Part shown: one piece after another, positions 8,611 through 18,191 of the stretch | How the letters are laid out: every line of letters starts with the position of its first letter | How positions within the stretch are numbered: the stretch's first letter is position 1 | NCBI GenBank assembly: GCA_963765495.1 | Contig: CAVXWP010000001.1 | Span: 384,001 to 448,000, forward strand | From: Blastocatellia bacterium | Lineage (GTDB): Bacteria > Acidobacteriota > Blastocatellia > UBA7656 | Length of the DNA stretch: 64,000 nucleotides | Direction: 5' to 3' | Made by a program: the position numbers and the translations under genes | Notes under the pieces: model-generated | What the model saw: only the letters and a program-made list of their open reading frames with translations | The model's database searches: none | What the model was told of the DNA's origin: nothing

Positions 8611-9836
8611 TGATGTTCTCCTGTAAGCGTTGACGAATCGTTCTCGAAGTATTCTTTAATACCATAACCGGCAAGCGCGCCATCACCCGATTTAAGCGTT
8701 TCCATAAAGAGAGAGAGATAGCGACCGGTCTCGGCGTGGCTGCTCAATTGAGTTTGAACAAGCTGTCGGCAGTTATCGCCAAATCGTTTTAACTCTTCTG
8801 AGGAAGCCCTCGCGGCCTCGTCTATCGCCCGGCGGCACGCGTGACGGTCTCCCGGATAAAAGAGAAAACCGTGACGGTCTTCTTCAAGCACATCGGCCAT
8901 GCCTCCGGCAGTCGAGGCAAGAAGCGGGAGACCGAGACCTGCCGCTTCAAGCAATACATTTGGCAGCCCATCGTAAAACGATGCGATCACGACCAGATCA
9001 CACGCCGGATAATGATTCAACAGGTCGTAGCGGTCTACGAAGGGGTATAGGCTATAGGCGATTTGCGTCTCGTGGCGAGCAAGCCAGTCGAAAATTTCTT
9101 CTTCCAGATCACCTACAAAAAGAAGGTGAAAGTTTTCGGCGTGACCCGATTCGATAAGGGTTTCAAGAAAGAAAAGCCCGCCTTTTTTCTGCTTGATCTG
9201 ACCAAACATGCCAAGCACACGTCGCCCGCCACCTGTCGTCGCCCGCCACCTGTCGGCGCGCGAAAGATGCGAGGGAAGCGGTTCCCACCCGCTCAAATCA
9301 ATCCCGTTTGGAATCCAGACCGGATCTAGCTCTGGAAAGAGCGCCCTGATCTTTGCGGCCTTGTCGCGGCTGACCGCGCAGATGCGCGCCGACCGCTTGA
9401 GCGCCTCTCGCAAAACGTCGCCGCGTTTGGGCGAGAATATCCCTATGTCGAAATCGTTCCCGCGAACAAGGGTGATGAGCGGAAGGCCGAGCCACGCGGC
9501 ATAGACCGGACCGGCAAGCATCGGAAGCACGCCGCCAAAGGCTACGATGTGAGTCAGGGGATTTGCCCCCGCATCGGCCGATATGACGTTCCACAAACAG
9601 TTCATCGCGTGCGCGGGGTCCTGCCCCACAGGACAGGCGATGTAGTTGCCGTTTCTTTTGGCTTCGATTTTTATCTCCTGTTGAGCGTGCGAGAAATGAG
9701 CTACGTCAACGAGAACGCCCGCCTGCCTGAGCGAGTGAACAATGCGGTCGCAGGACTGAGCCATGCCGCCACGGCTCGGATAGTAATTCTCAGTCAACCA
9801 GAGTAAGCGCAAGTTTGGCAGTGAAATGTCAGACAT
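8607..9836 (-). CDS. Glycosyltransferase family 4
   Basis: YYPSRGG, IPNGID, YDGLPNVLLEAAGLGLP (E-x7-E variant with first D). Confidence 0.88.
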   Translation of the reverse strand: MSDISLPNLRLLWLTENYYPSRGGMAQSCDRIVHSLRQAGVLVDVAHFSHAQQEIKIEAKRNGNYIACPVGQDPAHAMNCLWNVISADAGANPLTHIVAFGGVLPMLAGPVYAAWLGLPLITLVRGNDFDIGIFSPKRGDVLREALKRSARICAVSRDKAAKIRALFPELDPVWIPNGIDLSGWEPLPSHLSRADRWRATTGGGRRVLGMFGQIKQKKGGLFFLETLIESGHAENFHLLFVGDLEEEIFDWLARHETQIAYSLYPFVDRYDLLNHYPACDLVVIASFYDGLPNVLLEAAGLGLPLLASTAGGMADVLEEDRHGFLFYPGDRHACRRAIDEAARASSEELKRFGDNCRQLVQTQLSSHAETGRYLSLFMETLKSGDGALAGYGIKEYFENDSSTLTGEHQ

Positions 9837-9848
9837 AAATCAAAGCTG

Positions 9849-10214
9849 TCAGCTATCGAGAAAGCCCGCGCCCTCCTCCTCTCCGTCGTCTATGTAATCG
9901 CCCTCTTTTCTATCGAAGGCGCGAACGTCGTAATCGTCATAATAGCTGTCGTTATAATATCCCGTGTAGAAAGGATAATAATCTGTCCTTGAATAATATC
10001 TGTGCCGGTAAGAATAGGCCCAGTTTGAACCGTATTGATTGTCGTCGAGTTCTTCCTGTCGCCTGGCGTTGCATTCGACACAGACAGGGCCGGTCGGCGG
10101 AAAGAACATATGCTCGGGGCAGACCGCCCGCCCGCAGACCGGGCAGGAATTGGCCGCCATTTTGTCGCAATTGCGGAGCACGAAAAAACCTTTTCTTACA
10201 GCGCATCTTGTCAT
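9849..10214 (-). CDS. Zinc-finger (AN1/B-box-like) protein with Tyr/Asp-rich tail
   Basis: C..C..CPVCGRAVCPEH..CVEC followed by 14 Tyr in about 50 residues; GGAG RBS; 2-nt gap to the upstream gene. Confidence 0.75.
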   Translation of the reverse strand: MTRCAVRKGFFVLRNCDKMAANSCPVCGRAVCPEHMFFPPTGPVCVECNARRQEELDDNQYGSNWAYSYRHRYYSRTDYYPFYTGYYNDSYYDDYDVRAFDRKEGDYIDDGEEEGAGFLDS

Positions 10215-10216
10215 AA

Positions 10217-11089
10217 TTATTTTTCTCCATCCCCGGCAGGCTTGACTCGTCTGTACGCTCCCGCGACCAGATCGAGAAAATTATTCAGGTCGGGGACCGA
10301 ATCCAGAGTCGTAGATATTACGGCGCGGCGAAGACTCACGACGTTGCGTTTCTCTCCGGCGCGCGCAGCCACACGGTCGCCTTTGAATGTGCCCGAACTT
10401 TTATCGGCAAGGGCATAATCCGTGCGGCGCAACTGAACCTGCGCTTCAAACCGCGTCTTGATTTTGTACTTTGTCTTGGTCTTGCTTTTGCCGCTCGCGC
10501 TCCGCTTATTTATTACCCGCTTGCGAATATTATCTGTGATCATCCATTGCAGGCGCGAACCGTCGGCAAGCAGTGCTTCGCCTTCCATCCAGGGATTGGC
10601 GTAGAAAGTCTCTTTGATATTGCCGGGCATGTGTCGGGCTCGCGTGGGGAGGCTTGTCTCTTTCTCTTTTTCCGTGCCTTCCCGGAAATCGAGTTTCAGA
10701 TAGAGCGGCTGGCCCGGCTCCATCTCTTCTTTCAGGATCGAAATCAGAGGCACGGTGAACCGCCGGAGTCTATCCGACAAATCTCTTTTCTTTCTCGAAA
10801 TGTAAAATATCAGCAGAGGTATTCCCGCAAGTAAAACCAGCACGAAGGGGATAAAAAATCCGGTCACGGCAATAAAAAAAGTTATGGCAAGCAAAACTCC
10901 GGTCGCGCACCCCAATCTGCCAATGGTCTTTCTCGCGGCATCGCCTATGCGGTCGTATTCGGCCAGTTGCGCGAGCAAAGCGAACCACTGGTCGGGAGTG
11001 TAGGTTGCCTCAACCTGCTTTGACCCGAGTATCCGCAATTGGTCGGGAGTGAGCGTTTTATGGAGTTGATATTCCCGGATGATACTCAT
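10217..11089 (-). CDS. Hypothetical membrane protein (2 TM, basic soluble domain)
   Basis: Two hydrophobic helices, KRSASGKSKTKTKYK motif, ATGA overlap with the upstream GT4. Confidence 0.75.
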   Translation of the reverse strand: MSIIREYQLHKTLTPDQLRILGSKQVEATYTPDQWFALLAQLAEYDRIGDAARKTIGRLGCATGVLLAITFFIAVTGFFIPFVLVLLAGIPLLIFYISRKKRDLSDRLRRFTVPLISILKEEMEPGQPLYLKLDFREGTEKEKETSLPTRARHMPGNIKETFYANPWMEGEALLADGSRLQWMITDNIRKRVINKRSASGKSKTKTKYKIKTRFEAQVQLRRTDYALADKSSGTFKGDRVAARAGEKRNVVSLRRAVISTTLDSVPDLNNFLDLVAGAYRRVKPAGDGEK

Positions 11090-15051: not shown

Positions 15052-15540
15052 TCAGTGATTGAAAAGCCAGTTTTCAAAGACGCGCGCTTCTTCGCTCTTG
15101 CCGCTCCACCGCGCTCGGTTGCGGCCCGTCAATGCCAGCACCTCGGCGTGGTGTTGACCCGCGCGATCACCTATGCGCTCGAAATAGTTGTAGAGCCTTG
15201 CGATCTCGGCCACCGATTCCCTAGCCGCTTCCACGGTCTTGAAAGAGAGCACATTGCGGAAGTGCCGGCTGTAGAGATTCTGGTCGCGTGCGGTCGTGGT
15301 ATAAAGATCGAAGTATCCCTTGAGCAGCCCGGCATTCTGTAAGACGCTCGCCACATAGCTGGGCCGGGTTCCGACCGTCCGCGCGATCTCTCCGAGGTCG
15401 GTAACACCCGCCCGGTGAAGATCGAGAATCTGGTCCTTCTTGGTGATCTTTGGCCGCGCGTTTTGCATCCGGCTCTCTTTGACGCCGTTGGCCATTGAGG
15501 GAAGGACGCCTTGATTGAATTGAATCTGTTGTTCCTGCAT
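15052..15540 (-). CDS. Hypothetical protein with probable N-terminal HTH
   Basis: TKKDQILDLHRAG..LGEIARTVGTRPSYVASVL is HTH-like; GGAGG RBS. Confidence 0.75.
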   Translation of the reverse strand: MQEQQIQFNQGVLPSMANGVKESRMQNARPKITKKDQILDLHRAGVTDLGEIARTVGTRPSYVASVLQNAGLLKGYFDLYTTTARDQNLYSRHFRNVLSFKTVEAARESVAEIARLYNYFERIGDRAGQHHAEVLALTGRNRARWSGKSEEARVFENWLFNH

Positions 15541-15592
15541 TTTATAACCTCCAAGCTTCTTCCAGCAGCGAGGCGGAGAGCCTGGCGATCCG

Positions 15593-16582
15593 TCAGCCCG
15601 CGTGGCGGATTTCGGTTCGATCTTCGGCCAGAGCCTTGAGGTGATCTATGAATGCGCTTGCGGCGCGGCGCGAAAGCTCTTCGGGGCGGCATTCGAGTAC
15701 GGCAAGGCATTCGGCCTCGGCATTCACACCCTTGACGTTTGAGATAGCGCGAATTGCAACCAGTTGTTTGGGCGTCACAAGATCGGCCATCGTCTTTGCT
15801 ATCGCATCGCGGGGGAACGCAGGCTGATGACCCGAAGCAGTGTTACCGTTCTTATGGATCACTTCCTCATCCTCCTTGCGATATAGCTCGCGCGCGATGC
15901 CGAATTTGACCGCGGCGCGTTTGAGCGCATCGTGCTCGGCCTTCTTTATTCCCACCTCATCGTAAGCCGAACCTGTGCCTACGCCCTGCCGCCTCACGCC
16001 CCGTATCGTTATGGAAGCCGTGACGGCGACGAAATCTCCAATCTGCTTTACATCGGTAACCTCGTGCGACCAGTCGGGGCAGATGCGATCAAGCAAATCC
16101 GCAACCTTGTGCCACTCCACATAATCGACTTCGTGCTCGCGGCCTGCCCGGTCTGTCCAGCCTACACGTTGTTTTACGATCTCGGGCGAGACGGCTTCCG
16201 ATAACTGCTTCAGCATTCCGGCAAACGGAGCGGGAGCCAGAAAAGGCATCTGCGCCTGCTCATCCTGCGCACTCTCTTCCTGCGACTCAAGCGATGGCTC
16301 CTCGATATGCTCTTCGCCGGTTTCATTCTGCGGCTCGAGATGGAATTTCACCGCGAGTATATGCTCGCATCTGAAGCGAATCTCTTCGGCTGCGCGCTGC
16401 TCAAATTCGGGGCAACTGCACCGGACCCGCCCGTCTTCGTCGCGCCAGATTCGGAATTTCTCTTTTCTGATTCCAGACGAATAGACGTTGAACCCTTCAT
16501 AATCGCGCTCGACTCCGCCCATGGCCGCGATTGCTCTGGCCCTGTTGATAAGCAAATTTGAATCTTCGATTGCTGCGCTCAT
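15593..16582 (-). CDS. SWIM zinc finger fused to a Rad52/Rad22-family single-strand annealing domain (DdrA/Sak-like)
   Basis: CSCPEF-x10-CEH (SWIM); DLLDRICPDWS...KKAEHDALKRAAVKFGIARELY (Rad52 fold); C-terminal helical TPKQL...LSRRAASAFIDHL. Confidence 0.85.
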   Translation of the reverse strand: MSAAIEDSNLLINRARAIAAMGGVERDYEGFNVYSSGIRKEKFRIWRDEDGRVRCSCPEFEQRAAEEIRFRCEHILAVKFHLEPQNETGEEHIEEPSLESQEESAQDEQAQMPFLAPAPFAGMLKQLSEAVSPEIVKQRVGWTDRAGREHEVDYVEWHKVADLLDRICPDWSHEVTDVKQIGDFVAVTASITIRGVRRQGVGTGSAYDEVGIKKAEHDALKRAAVKFGIARELYRKEDEEVIHKNGNTASGHQPAFPRDAIAKTMADLVTPKQLVAIRAISNVKGVNAEAECLAVLECRPEELSRRAASAFIDHLKALAEDRTEIRHAG

Positions 16583-16806
16583 TTACCTATTTCTCCTTCA
16601 CAGATCGAATTTGGATTAACACGTTCGGAAAGCCCGACCCGCAAATCAAAGCCTCGCTCAACTCTGTGCGCGTCTGCTTGCTCTACCGCTTCAAGTCGGC
16701 TCTCAAGCTCGCTTACCTGACGCGCGAGCATCTTTATCCTCCGCCAGAGAGCGTCGAAACTTTCCCAGACCTCTTCAGAATGAGAGTGCTCAGAATGGGA
16801 GTGCAT
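16579..16806 (-). CDS. Small coiled-coil hypothetical protein
   Basis: LARQVSELESRLEAVE heptads; ATGA overlap with the next gene; GAGG RBS. Confidence 0.6.
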   Translation of the reverse strand: MHSHSEHSHSEEVWESFDALWRRIKMLARQVSELESRLEAVEQADAHRVERGFDLRVGLSERVNPNSICEGEIGK

Positions 16807-17002
16807 CGTTTAGCCTCTCTCTCTGCCCGCAGGCGGCCTGATCAAACCTGATCTTGCCCGAAACTCCGCCGGCATATTCGGCTAACGACTCCCTTGCCTC
16901 CAGTTGCGACGACCAGAACTCATATCCTTTCCAGCCGTCCCATCCGGTCAAATCCTCTGCCGTTTCCAGCTTCAATAACCCTCTTTCGCCCGCTTCTCTC
17001 AT
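16790..17002 (-). CDS. Small hypothetical protein, first gene of the leftward operon
   Basis: GAGGT RBS before the ATG, directly downstream of the promoter at 17036-17064. Confidence 0.55.
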   Translation of the reverse strand: MREAGERGLLKLETAEDLTGWDGWKGYEFWSSQLEARESLAEYAGGVSGKIRFDQAACGQRERLNDALPF

Positions 17003-17018
17003 ACTATTACCTCACTGC

Positions 17019-17036
17019 TGTTTCATACGTGAAACA
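17019..17036. promoter_or_regulatory. Putative repressor operator box 1
   Basis: Perfect inverted repeat TGTTTCA-TACG-TGAAACA over the predicted leftward transcription start. Confidence 0.7.
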
Positions 17037-17064
17037 TTGTACCATTGTTCCTCGTTTGTTTCAA
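17036..17064 (-). promoter_or_regulatory. Sigma70 promoter for the Rad52-like operon
   Basis: Minus strand TTGAAA-N17-TACAAT with extended TG. Confidence 0.75.
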
Positions 17065-17074
17065 GTATAAAATA
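17057..17074. promoter_or_regulatory. Putative operator box 2
   Basis: TGTTTCA-AGTA-TAAAATA, 2 mismatches to the arms of box 1, overlapping the leftward -35. Confidence 0.6.
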
Positions 17075-17076
17075 AA

Positions 17077-17111
17077 GTGTTGCATGCAACACGGTTTTCG
17101 TGTTATAAAAT
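17077..17111 (+). promoter_or_regulatory. Rightward promoter of the XRE gene with a 16-bp palindrome over -35
   Basis: GTGTTGCATGCAACAC (17077-17092) contains TTGCAT; TGtTATAAAAT at 17101-17111. Confidence 0.55.
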
Positions 17112-17140
17112 GGGACAAGGATTAAGGAGGTGCCTGTAGA

Positions 17141-17566
17141 ATGGGAGAATCCGCTTTAAATATCATTGAGTTAGGAGAGTATGTTAAGCGCAAGAGGCAG
17201 GACGAAAAGCTTTCCTTACGGCAGGTTGCGATGAAAATTCAGGTCAGCGCATCTACGCTTTCGCGCATAGAAAACGGCATAGGCATTCCCGACAGTGCTA
17301 CGCTTGCGCGTCTTGCGTCCTGGCTTGGGATACCGCTTGAGAGGCTGATGAGAGGGTCTTTCTTAGGTGAAACAGTCGAGGGAATAGCCGCGGGGCCAGG
17401 CATAGAGCCTGTTATCTATTATCCGACCGAATCTACGCCGAACATAGTCGAAGCTCATCTGCGAGCCGACCGCAATCTGAAGCCGGATATGGCAAAGGCC
17501 CTGGCCGAGTTGTTCCGTGTTGCATACACGCAATTCTCCGACAAACAGACCGATCAAAATGGCTGA
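17141..17566 (+). CDS. XRE-family HTH transcriptional repressor (DdrO/ImmR/CapH-like)
   Basis: LSLRQVAMKIQVSASTLSRIENG..PDSATLARLASWL; AAGGAGG RBS. Confidence 0.9.
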   Translation: MGESALNIIELGEYVKRKRQDEKLSLRQVAMKIQVSASTLSRIENGIGIPDSATLARLASWLGIPLERLMRGSFLGETVEGIAAGPGIEPVIYYPTESTPNIVEAHLRADRNLKPDMAKALAELFRVAYTQFSDKQTDQNG

Positions 17567-18191
17567 AGGTTACAGAACCGAGACCCCCTCAATCGAAGAG
17601 ATGTTGCCTCCGACGGCGAAACGGCGCGTACACGAGCGCATCGCGCTCAAGATACGCGAATTCGCCGGGGTTCCCATAGACCGACCGCTCAATCCCTGGA
17701 AACTGGCTCCATACGTAAAGATTCGAGTGATGAATCTCAAGGATGTCGAGGGGCTTTCCGAAGAGAGTCGAAGGTTGCTCGTAGGCGATAACGGCAAGAG
17801 CTGGTCGGGTGGGGCGACTCGTCCTCTGCCTGACGGGTCCCGGCTGGTCTTTCTCAATCCAAACCATACTACCGAGCGGCAGGCGGCTACATTGATGGAA
17901 GAGATATGTCACGTCATACTGGGGCACTCACCCACACGGCTGACCTTTCAGGCGCAGGAGGACAGGGAAGTCCATTTTCGAAACTTCGATGAAAATCAGG
18001 AAGAAGTGGCTTACGCCGTAGGGGCTGCCGCGCTGGTTCCATACTTTACACTCAAGCACGCGGTTATGGCCGGGTTGAGCGCCGAAAGAATTGCCCGACG
18101 ACTGGCCGTCAGTCGGGTTCTGGTCGAATACAGAATAAAAGTCTGTCGCCTCTGGAGCGAATACAAGGAGAGAGGCAGATTATCCGGCTAG
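17559..18191 (+). CDS. ImmA/IrrE-family metallo-endopeptidase (Peptidase_M78) with EExxH motif
   Basis: WSGG...VFLNPNHTTERQAATLMEEICHVILGH...QEEVAYAVGAAALVP...C-terminal HTH IARRLAVSRVLVEYRI; ATG overlaps the XRE gene end. Confidence 0.85.
   Translation: MAEGYRTETPSIEEMLPPTAKRRVHERIALKIREFAGVPIDRPLNPWKLAPYVKIRVMNLKDVEGLSEESRRLLVGDNGKSWSGGATRPLPDGSRLVFLNPNHTTERQAATLMEEICHVILGHSPTRLTFQAQEDREVHFRNFDENQEEVAYAVGAAALVPYFTLKHAVMAGLSAERIARRLAVSRVLVEYRIKVCRLWSEYKERGRLSG

Follow-up and report, generated by a model that had tools for sequence, protein, structure and literature searches.

Does the chromosome of a Blastocatellia bacterium encode a stress switch of its own, built from a repressor, a peptidase-like partner, and Rad52-type proteins, or does it carry the remnant of a mobile element? 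This question is raised by a module of six genes at positions 15052–18191 of a 64,000 nt stretch of assembly GCA_963765495.1 (contig CAVXWP010000001.1, positions 384,001–448,000 of the forward strand). This stretch, which was analyzed as a whole, is referred to as the window, and positions are those of the window unless another contig or locus is named. The genome to which it belongs (G000) comprises 7.3 Mb. The module combines the genes for an XRE family repressor and for a Peptidase_M78 (COG2856) protein, here called M78, with a divergently oriented operon that codes for a SWIM-Rad52 protein. We consider it likely, with a probability of about 0.6, that the module is a vertically inherited stress switch of the Blastocatellia, which resembles IrrE/DdrO in its logic and has a minimal regulon of two Rad52-family operons.

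The module had been noticed in a sequence-only reading as a four-gene operon (two small genes, SWIM-Rad52, and a gene without assigned function) with a divergently oriented regulator pair. All six open reading frames (ORFs) are present, four on the minus strand and the genes for XRE and M78 on the plus strand. The operon begins with g70 (16790–17002), a small gene whose product has a conserved core rich in W and Y and ends in ...SDV(L/F)PF. It overlaps with g75 (16579–16806), which codes for a small, conserved, coiled-coil-like protein and which in turn overlaps by 4 nt with the start of the SWIM-Rad52 gene (15593–16582). The latter codes for 329 aa; in this protein, a SWIM finger is joined through an acidic linker to a Rad52 core, and a conserved C-terminal domain follows. 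The last gene, g162 (15052–15540, 162 aa), starts 52 nt after the SWIM-Rad52 gene. On the plus strand, the XRE gene (17141–17566) codes for 141 aa with an N-terminal helix-turn-helix (HTH) domain of the HTH_3 family that is connected by a variable linker to a C-terminal segment of high conservation. The M78 gene (17559–18191) codes for 210 aa. Its ORF is open from a GTG at 17517, yet the conserved start is the ATG at 17559, which results in an 8-nt overlap with the XRE gene (stop codon TGA at 17564–17566). This overlap agrees with the translational coupling that had been proposed for the pair. Profile searches also confirmed the four family labels, with Pfam matches above the curated cut-offs for HTH_3 (1.1e-14), Peptidase_M78 (7.4e-15), Rad52_Rad22 (7.2e-12), and SWIM (8.8e-05).

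The operator and the predicted regulon

The two divergent operons are separated by an intergenic region of 138 nt. On its operon side lies the candidate operator O1, the palindrome TGTTTCA-TACG-TGAAACA (17019–17036). It is abutted by a minus-strand site (17036–17064) that has 10 of 12 matches to the sigma-70-type consensus (-35 TTGAAA at 17064–17059, a 17-nt spacer, and a TG-extended -10 TACAAT at 17041–17036) and that is the predicted promoter of the Rad52 operon. Since this promoter-like site ends at 17036, the palindrome would sit over the predicted transcription start. A further half-site, TGTTTCA (17057–17063), overlaps the -35 box of the same predicted promoter. For the XRE-M78 operon, a plus-strand promoter is predicted at 17077–17109 (TTGCAT at 17080–17085, an 18-nt spacer, and a TG-extended TATAAA at 17101–17109). 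This site was not called by the consensus scan; its elements TGTTGC and TGTG.TATA are conserved alignment columns. The ribosome-binding site of the XRE gene is AAGGAGG (17124–17130).

When 21 orthologous XRE/operon intergenic regions were aligned, conservation was found to be concentrated in two blocks. The first consists of TGTTTCATAC(G/T)TG(A/C)AACA, followed by TGTAyCA, the minus-strand extended -10. The second, TGTTkCAAG...TGTTGC...TGTG.TATA, comprises the minus-strand -35 together with the -35 and extended -10 of the XRE promoter on the plus strand. The first palindrome is located at the same position in 19 of the 21 regions and is conserved across genera. For further comparisons, we used a degenerate operator core, GTT[TG]CA-N4-TG[AC]AAC. 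Over 20 orthologous module loci with wide flanks (347,494 nt in total), this core has 19 occurrences, one each in 19 of the loci, and it never occurs outside the XRE/operon intergenic region. The sequence-only reading had described operator-like palindromes over both promoters, and this holds in full for the first one. The second, the 16-bp perfect palindrome GTGTTGCATGCAACAC at 17077–17092, which overlaps the predicted XRE-M78 promoter, does not qualify as a second conserved operator, since all genera keep its left arm TGTTGC but only some of them the right arm.

The same operator occurs at a second, unlinked locus. The genome codes for a second Rad52_Rad22 protein (PF04098, 5.8e-12), which has 204 aa, is devoid of a SWIM domain, and is encoded on a different contig. 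In the corresponding operon (C2:225,980–227,780, equivalent to positions 8981–10780 of locus L003), the gene for this Rad52-only paralogue is followed by g322. The g322 protein combines a Cys-rich motif at its N-terminus with a long tract of Lys/Arg/Pro-rich repeats reminiscent of histone H1 and with a conserved C-terminus; searches returned neither a Pfam family nor a usable Atlas match. Upstream of the Rad52 paralogue is CGTTTCATACTTGAAACG, which overlaps a TTGAAA -35 box, and 19 of 21 paralogue loci have kept an operator at this place. In a set of 20 such loci (122,291 nt), the degenerate core was found 18 times, one copy each in 18 loci, and always just upstream of the Rad52 paralogue where it overlaps the conserved -35/extended -10. 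The fact that an unlinked Rad52 operon has the same operator indicates that the regulator may well be dedicated to Rad52-family effectors. This shared operator ties the regulator to the Rad52 effectors much more strongly than adjacency alone and is the main addition to what had been noted before.

How rare the operator is was determined by scanning G000 and five other genomes of 6.5–9.3 Mb. The exact core was observed three times in G000 (0.31 expected from base composition) and the degenerate core four times (1.5 expected). The five other genomes have 2, 2, 2, 3, and 3 sites with the degenerate core; 10 of these 12 are at the two Rad52 loci, and a reversed-pattern control gave 0–1 hits per genome. 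In each of the six genomes, both Rad52 loci are among the 2–4 degenerate-core sites. Because the operator is so rare genome-wide and its sites always include these two loci, the predicted regulon consists of the XRE-M78 operon and the two Rad52-family operons. A wider regulon was considered and rejected, as neither the exact nor the degenerate scan of G000 revealed a site at recA-, uvr-, or ssb-like positions.

Two additional sites in G000 are probably due to chance. One of them (C2:511093) is located inside an ORF. The other (C16:318,632–318,647, equivalent to L043 6633–6648) is the third exact copy of the core, GGTTTCATAACTGAAACC, and covers the ribosome-binding site and start codon of a gene for an 824-aa Ser/Thr kinase-TPR protein; it may alternatively be a translational site. 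The second Rad52 operon is divergent from a gene pair for an extracytoplasmic function (ECF) sigma factor and an RskA anti-sigma factor, which starts ~150 nt from the operator. An ECF sigma gene is also found beside the XRE-M78 pair of a sister family (see below). That the two correspond to each other was rejected since the sigma factor beside the paralogue was the weakest of 31 matches and they are not orthologues.

The repressor and its M78 partner

The resemblance of XRE to regulators of known structure is confined to its N-terminal domain. An XRE profile matched ImmR (7t8i), DdrO, SinR, and ClgR in the PDB over residues 11–73 (the HTH) only, and the single sequence matched DdrOC (6rnx) at E 2.4e-4. 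The C-terminal segment (residues ~89–132) contains a series of invariant positions (V91-I92, E97, and H106-L-R-A-D110, through F125-R126 and Y129); the C-terminal 57 aa alone had no PDB match at E<=10. XRE resembles DdrO in the generic HTH only, the C-terminal segment being without detectable similarity to that of DdrO. The likeness of the invariant L107-R108 to the L106/R107 site of DdrO is only a lead. XRE also has weak NCBIfam matches, below the cut-offs, to antitoxins of the HipB and HigA types.

M78 is a clear member of its family by sequence (PF06114, 55.3 bits with a cut-off of 22; phrog_87 metallo-protease, 7.2e-11). Its structural model (mean predicted local distance difference test, pLDDT, 81.8) consists of the peptidase domain followed by short helices up to residue 210. 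When this model was compared to the PDB with Foldseek, ranks 1–11 were occupied by IrrE (3dti/3dte), PprI (8slm/8sln), 6cyy/6cz6/6cyj/6d2s, and CapP (7t5t), with E-values of 5.6e-4 to 1e-2, a probability of 1.00, and TM-scores of ~0.42–0.49. Among these, 6cyy is an XRE-M78 regulator from Mycobacterium tuberculosis. Searches of the PDB with the M78 sequence (phmmer with the single sequence and with a profile) gave chance-level matches only, none of them to IrrE. Of the designation as an IrrE/ImmA-like protease, the Peptidase_M78 family and the fold can be retained; M78 is not an IrrE orthologue, as it has no GAF-like domain, a deviating motif, and no PDB sequence match.

The motif in question is LMEEICHVILGH (EExxHxxxxH), which consists of EEICH (E114, E115, H118) followed by G122-H123 and which deviates from the canonical HEXXH. 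It aligns residue for residue with LFHECGHILLGH (HECGHILLGH) of M78-like paralogues from the same genome, which shows that the first metal-binding His is replaced by Glu. The motif had initially been read as HExxH and is corrected here to EExxH, a form found without exception in the 14 aligned orthologues and in the 13 additional ones (from three other families and metagenome-assembled genomes, MAGs). E115, H118, H123, and E148 are invariant in the 14 aligned orthologues. A profile search against 1.84 billion representatives returned 975 clusters with E<=1e-3, of which 436 have E<=1e-10. When the motif was read in the best 150 clusters, 133 had EExxH and 8 had HExxH, while 9 did not include the region. 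EExxHxxxxH thus appears to be the signature of a sizeable M78 subfamily and not a decay confined to one lineage. The biochemistry of this large subfamily (the 436 representative clusters) is unexplored. Among its longer members, 6 of 8 are fusions of HTH_3 and M78, which can be taken as a Rosetta-stone link between XRE and M78.

Three M78-like proteins of G000 (C2:56,844, C2:101,190, and C8:934,473; two of ~274 aa and one truncated) carry the canonical HECGH/HELAH...GH motif. The two genes on C2 are close to tyrosine recombinases (C2:64,783, C2:98,105, and C2:107,404), which suggests that these loci are integrated mobile elements.

A complex of M78 and XRE was predicted using own alignments for both proteins. 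It attained a score of 0.71, compared to 0.27 for the best of three controls. Of 80 solved complexes used for calibration, 58 attain this mark, as do 2 of 110 mismatched pairs, figures that apply only roughly to predictions with own alignments. The runs share at least 58% of the contacts, and the pLDDT of the partners is at least 61. In the predicted interface, M78 residues 56–98, 111, 114–115, and 118 face XRE residues 104–137. The model supports, although it does not show, binding of the conserved XRE C-terminus at the active site of M78.

Effectors, chromosomal setting, and inheritance

In the SWIM-Rad52 protein, the Rad52 core spans residues ~120–250 and is preceded by a finger of the type CxC...CxH and followed by a C-terminal domain of ~60 aa. 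The SWIM match (PF04434) is above its cut-off (22.4 vs 19.6 bits), and the CSC...C-E-H columns are kept in all 14 SWIM-bearing orthologues that were aligned. The SWIM-Rad52 profile has a weak, collinear match to the N-terminal domain of human RAD52 (E 0.023), the single sequence found no match in the PDB, and PHROG assigns the protein to Erf-like and other single-strand annealing protein (SSAP) families. From these family relationships we infer that the Rad52-family effectors are single-strand-annealing or DNA-end-protecting proteins.

The ancestry of the SWIM-Rad52 protein probably involves a phage. A phage-like IMG/VR contig, which also codes for DNA polymerase A, DnaB, and ThyX, harbors a collinear SWIM-Rad52-CTD protein (CTD, C-terminal domain) with 31% identity that matches the finger, the core, and the C-terminal domain. 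Because of this collinear homologue, a phage origin is likely, and the effector is probably a domesticated phage recombinase. The module as a whole, unlike the effector with respect to its ancestry, is not found in the viral contigs that were compared. We retrieved 110 IMG/VR stretches with Rad52 relatives and compared the neighborhoods in the 80 that were kept; none has the XRE, M78, g162, g75, or g70 of the module beside Rad52, and one has a weak generic XRE match. A tblastn search with SWIM-Rad52 against GenBank phages (50,697 records) had no match at E<=1e-5.

The C-terminal domain of SWIM-Rad52 (residues ~253–325, window ~15605–15825; LVTPKQL...ELSRRAAS..I.HLK) recurs in the phage-like protein (locus L065). 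It is also found as separate ORFs of 80–139 aa at six other places in one genome (G015, contigs C1 and C2), which suggests a mobile adaptor or interaction domain.

The three other genes of the operon could not be assigned to a family in Pfam, PHROG, NCBIfam, or PADLOC, g75 having only sub-threshold Pfam matches. In the 20 orthologous loci, g75 is matched by tblastn in 16 (start-to-stop ORFs were extracted in 14) and g70 in 9 at E<=1e-5. The gene g162 is conserved in 17 of the loci, with 54%–78% identity in the alignment; its product appears to be restricted to Acidobacteriota, the nearest Atlas clusters being unnamed proteins from this phylum. Its all-helical model (pLDDT 78) has no PDB fold match at E<=0.001. 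The label "HTH-like", which had been given to g162, finds a counterpart only in three short helices of this model. A relationship between g162 and g322 was considered and rejected as there is no similarity.

The module is flanked by genes for a glycosyltransferase, an aldehyde dehydrogenase, an amidohydrolase (Amidohydro_2), a response regulator, and a TPR protein. The window is free of tRNA genes, and the module is not bracketed by direct repeats. None of the 29 tyrosine-recombinase matches of the genome is inside the window, which was not screened throughout for serine recombinases and phage structural genes. To this extent, the ordinary chromosomal surroundings free of an integrase, as previously described, are confirmed.

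The distribution was surveyed in 60 relatives, 36 of them from the same family. Full-length SWIM-Rad52 orthologues with 64%–74% identity occur in 24 of the 36 same-family genomes. M78 is present in exactly the same 24, and its occurrence is uniform among the species within each genus. The remaining 12 genomes lack the entire unit. In 17 of the 20 loci with wide flanks, g162, SWIM-Rad52, XRE, and M78 have the same order, and one more locus is cut by a contig end; the position is the same in Blastocatellia MAGs from many genera. The Amidohydro_2 gene is a neighbor in 14 of the loci, and an unnamed gene for a 352-aa protein is found on the other side in 12. Pairwise distances between the concatenated proteins of the module correlate with those of flanking enzymes (12 taxa, two enzymes; Pearson r 0.88), a value reached in 0 of 5000 permutations. 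In a genome without the module (G003, L207 8479–8731), the 352-aa gene and the amidohydrolase gene are separated by ~250 nt, and there is no response regulator gene either. This "empty site" implies at least one event in which the whole module was acquired or lost. With conserved synteny and with distances that track the flanks, the physical linkage of regulator and effector, which had been pointed out for this one acidobacterial genome, extends to many genera of the Blastocatellia. The module appears to be a long-resident, vertically inherited part of the chromosome and not a recent fragment of a prophage or an integrative and conjugative element (ICE).

The records of the related contigs are from Blastocatellia or Acidobacteriota MAGs, with a few apparent mislabels. 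Four module-bearing MAG records (L146, L155, L157, and L171) carry "uncultured Clostridia bacterium" or "Heliomicrobium sp." in their titles. Their M78 is 72%–76% identical to that of Blastocatellia records in the case of L146, L155, and L157, whose contigs are identical to those of the syntenic loci L029, L034, and L038, and 47% identical in the case of L171. The titles of these four records are probably taxonomic mislabels.

Outside the family, the parts of the module are combined differently. Two of the 20 loci, which are from another family, have a SWIM-less Rad52 divergent from XRE and no M78; the M78 orthologue of that family (45%–50% identity) is unlinked and located between ftsY and a GAF-SpoIIE gene. 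All five genomes of a sister family (G044, G060, G056, G052, and G048; loci L186–L190) have the XRE-M78 pair. It is located there between lptF/lptG and an ECF sigma operon. In L189, the only one of these loci in which the ORF in question was scanned, this operon includes a gene for an LTXXQ/Metal_resist protein. Operator-like palindromes are found upstream of XRE in two of these five loci. The XRE-M78 pair thus appears to be older and more widespread than its Rad52 cargo.

The proposed switch, its alternatives, and known systems

We propose that the palindrome (T)GTTTCA-TAC(G/T)-TG(A/C)AAC(A) is the binding site of XRE, which presumably forms a dimer via its conserved C-terminal segment. By binding there, XRE would occupy the transcription start of the g70-g75-SWIM-Rad52-g162 operon, and binding to the related half-sites over the -35 boxes of both divergent promoters would bring about autoregulation. 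At the unlinked operon (C2, ~227.0–227.8 kb), which codes for the 204-aa Rad52 paralogue and the basic protein with the Cys motif, the same palindrome would cover the -35 box. The co-translated M78 would recognize the C-terminal segment of XRE through its active-site face. Upon a stress signal, it would inactivate XRE, most likely by cleavage, so that both Rad52 operons are de-repressed. Since the effectors are predicted to be single-strand-annealing or end-protecting, DNA breakage, as caused by desiccation, radiation, or genotoxins, would be the most likely trigger. Binding of XRE to the palindrome, cleavage of XRE by M78, the identity of the signal, and induction by damage are all inferred.

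In a more far-reaching version, which we put forward tentatively and with some doubt, the module would be a dedicated break-repair response of the Blastocatellia that runs in parallel to LexA. It would employ two domesticated Rad52 proteins, one with a SWIM finger and one with a histone-like basic partner. A new M78 clade, characterized by EExxHxxxxH and devoid of a GAF domain, would be the switch, with a way of sensing that differs from the GAF-based or interdomain sensing of single-stranded DNA (ssDNA) in PprI and CapP. If this were true, it would add a second damage response of the DdrO/IrrE type, assembled independently and outside Deinococcus, and would be the first such response to be built around single-strand annealing proteins only.

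Several observations speak against a damage-responsive protease switch. The first zinc-binding His of HExxH is a Glu in every orthologue (27 of 27), which makes protease activity of M78 uncertain. With its 210 aa, M78 has no GAF-like domain, so that the known mechanism of sensing DNA damage is not simply transferable. The regulon is without a recA, uvr, or ssb site according to the core pattern, unlike that of Deinococcus. None of the five sister-family genomes has a Rad52 match, and an ECF sigma operon is the divergent neighbor of the pair there; the pair is thus not intrinsically tied to DNA repair, and its being older and wider than the Rad52 cargo tempers the idea that it senses DNA damage. 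Finally, both Rad52-type SSAPs and pairs of XRE and M78 are typically found in phages and mobile elements, in line with the PHROG matches for Rad52, XRE, and M78 and with the 110 viral contigs that have Rad52 relatives.

In one alternative, M78 is not a protease. The regulon and operator would be as described, while M78 would act as a stoichiometric anti-repressor or as a ligand sensor that disrupts XRE dimerization. The Glu-containing motif, found in all 27 orthologues and 133 of the best 150 clusters, fits this explanation, as do the 6cyy-type XRE-M78 fusions among the best fold matches and the HTH_3 + M78 fusions among the longer relatives (6 of 8). The complex model is in accord with it, too, as it shows binding only. 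There is a precedent in Rir from Streptococcus phage TP-J34, which is described as inhibiting Crh by binding, with cleavage undetected, although Rir keeps the HEXXH motif (PMC6868357); the M. tuberculosis protein 6cyy may act likewise. On the other hand, the replacing Glu is still a metal ligand, the invariant E115, H118, H123, and E148 look like a preserved and not a decayed active site, and the predicted interface takes in M78 residues 114, 115, and 118. We therefore regard a purely non-proteolytic M78 as rather unlikely. In a different alternative, the module is a fixed prophage or ICE remnant with a role in superinfection control or in inducible defence or counter-defence, regulated in the manner of CapH/CapP. 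Besides the collinear phage-like protein, the viral Rad52 relatives, and the PHROG matches, weak PADLOC matches to capH (for XRE) and SWIM_XIII could be taken this way, as could the absence of the module as a unit from 12 of the 36 same-family genomes, with the ~250 nt gap in G003. Against it stand the lack of a tyrosine recombinase, tRNA, or flanking repeat at the module, its genus-consistent presence at the same chromosomal position in many genera, and a divergence that tracks the flanks. Moreover, 0 of 80 viral loci have module genes beside Rad52, GenBank phages gave no match, PADLOC returned no significant system, and a second operator-bearing Rad52 operon is found elsewhere on the chromosome in a conserved context. 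We consider this explanation quite improbable.

It is highly improbable that XRE and M78 are a type II toxin-antitoxin (TA)-like pair, with a metalloprotease toxin and an HTH antitoxin, for which the proximity of Rad52 would be incidental. XRE/COG2856 pairs have been interpreted as TA systems (PMC10538038), and the weak HipB/HigA matches of XRE point in the same direction. However, the operator is common to the second Rad52 locus and conserved across genera, and inheritance is strictly vertical. The arrangement in the family in which M78 is unlinked from XRE, while XRE is still next to Rad52, is unlike that of an addiction pair. We favor a vertically inherited switch that controls two Rad52 operons.

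As predicted, this is a complete and very small circuit, with one operator sequence and two Rad52-family target operons, in a soil class that is dominated by uncultured organisms. It raises the question whether host-encoded Rad52-type proteins are inducible repair factors outside Deinococcus. It also raises the questions of how an M78 protein without GAF, and with Glu for the first metal-binding His, senses stress and acts on a repressor, and by which route a phage recombinase is domesticated into a host regulon. In accordance with the statement that no description from this lineage was known, we found none when searching a paper library for Acidobacteria/Blastocatellia repair, COG2856-XRE, and SWIM-Rad52. 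XRE/COG2856 pairs are very common; to our knowledge, those with a known regulon and signal are a handful: IrrE/DdrO, ImmA/ImmR, CapP/CapH, and Rir/Crh.

The precedents that had been invoked for the module hold up. COG2856/XRE pairs are described as widespread and as possibly acting by cleavage or, as in Rir/Crh, by non-proteolytic inhibition, and ImmA/ImmR as controlling excision and transfer of the mobile element ICEBs1 on which they are located (PMC6868357). For Deinococcus, ddrA, a Rad52-family gene, is listed in the IrrE/DdrO regulon (PMC6300522), and PprI is stated to need its GAF-like domain for activation by ssDNA (PMC10904395). CapP/CapH is reported to respond to DNA damage that is sensed as ssDNA.

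Among the effector families, SWIM-Rad52 has the Rad52_Rad22 core in common, at the family level, with DdrA and with the phage Sak/Erf SSAPs, as is also reflected by its PHROG matches; the Pfam family was detected in the control genomes of D. radiodurans and T. thermophilus as well. It differs from these proteins by the additional N-terminal SWIM finger and the conserved C-terminal domain, both also present in the protein from the phage-like contig. We know of no DdrA with such a SWIM-Rad52-CTD architecture. Many phage SSAP modules pair with an exonuclease gene, whereas no exonuclease partner was found in the module by Pfam.

With CapP/CapH, the module has in common a divergent pair of XRE and M78 genes by a neighboring operon, the fold match to CapP (7t5t), and the weak capH match of XRE in PADLOC (E 0.0026). 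It differs in that its genes belong to the Rad52 family and not to a known defence system: PADLOC gave no CapP match for M78, and for the operon proteins it returned no significant system match, only weak ones to SWIM_XIII (E 0.01) and to generic HTH. Equivalents of the second domain of CapP and of its cysteine-switch loop were not identified in M78. As in ImmA/ImmR, the genes for XRE and M78 lie side by side, with the controlled operon in divergent orientation, M78 is short and without GAF, and the ImmR HTH (7t8i) is among the PDB matches of the XRE profile. Unlike ImmA/ImmR, the module is chromosomal with a conserved position, no integrase or transfer genes were found, it has a second, unlinked target, and its motif is EExxH. 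Rir/Crh is a possible model for an M78 with a non-canonical motif, Rir being a COG2856 protein that binds its XRE; it is a prophage induction switch, and Rir has HEXXH in contrast to EExxH in M78.

The comparison to IrrE/DdrO likewise yields both likenesses and differences. Both systems have an XRE repressor with an M78/COG2856 partner, an autoregulated repressor gene (predicted in our case), and a Rad52-family target, which is ddrA in Deinococcus. In fold, M78 is matched best by IrrE and PprI, and LexA coexists, as G000 has two LexA-like genes. These LexA_DNA_bind genes are located at C2:87,035 and C8:124,689, with ORFs of 212 and 218 aa. In contrast to the Deinococcus system, the regulator genes of the module are adjacent and overlapping. 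M78 has 210 aa, no GAF-like domain, EExxH, and no PDB sequence match to IrrE, and the C-terminal segment of XRE is without detectable similarity to the C-terminal domain of DdrO. The predicted regulon is restricted to two Rad52 operons, as opposed to ~20 genes, including recA and uvr, in Deinococcus. The operator GTTTCA-N4-TGAAAC differs from the radiation/desiccation response motif (RDRM) of Deinococcus. The module would thus work like IrrE/DdrO, ImmA/ImmR, and CapP/CapH; since M78 lacks both the HEXXH motif and the GAF domain, we do not file it as an IrrE/DdrO orthologue.

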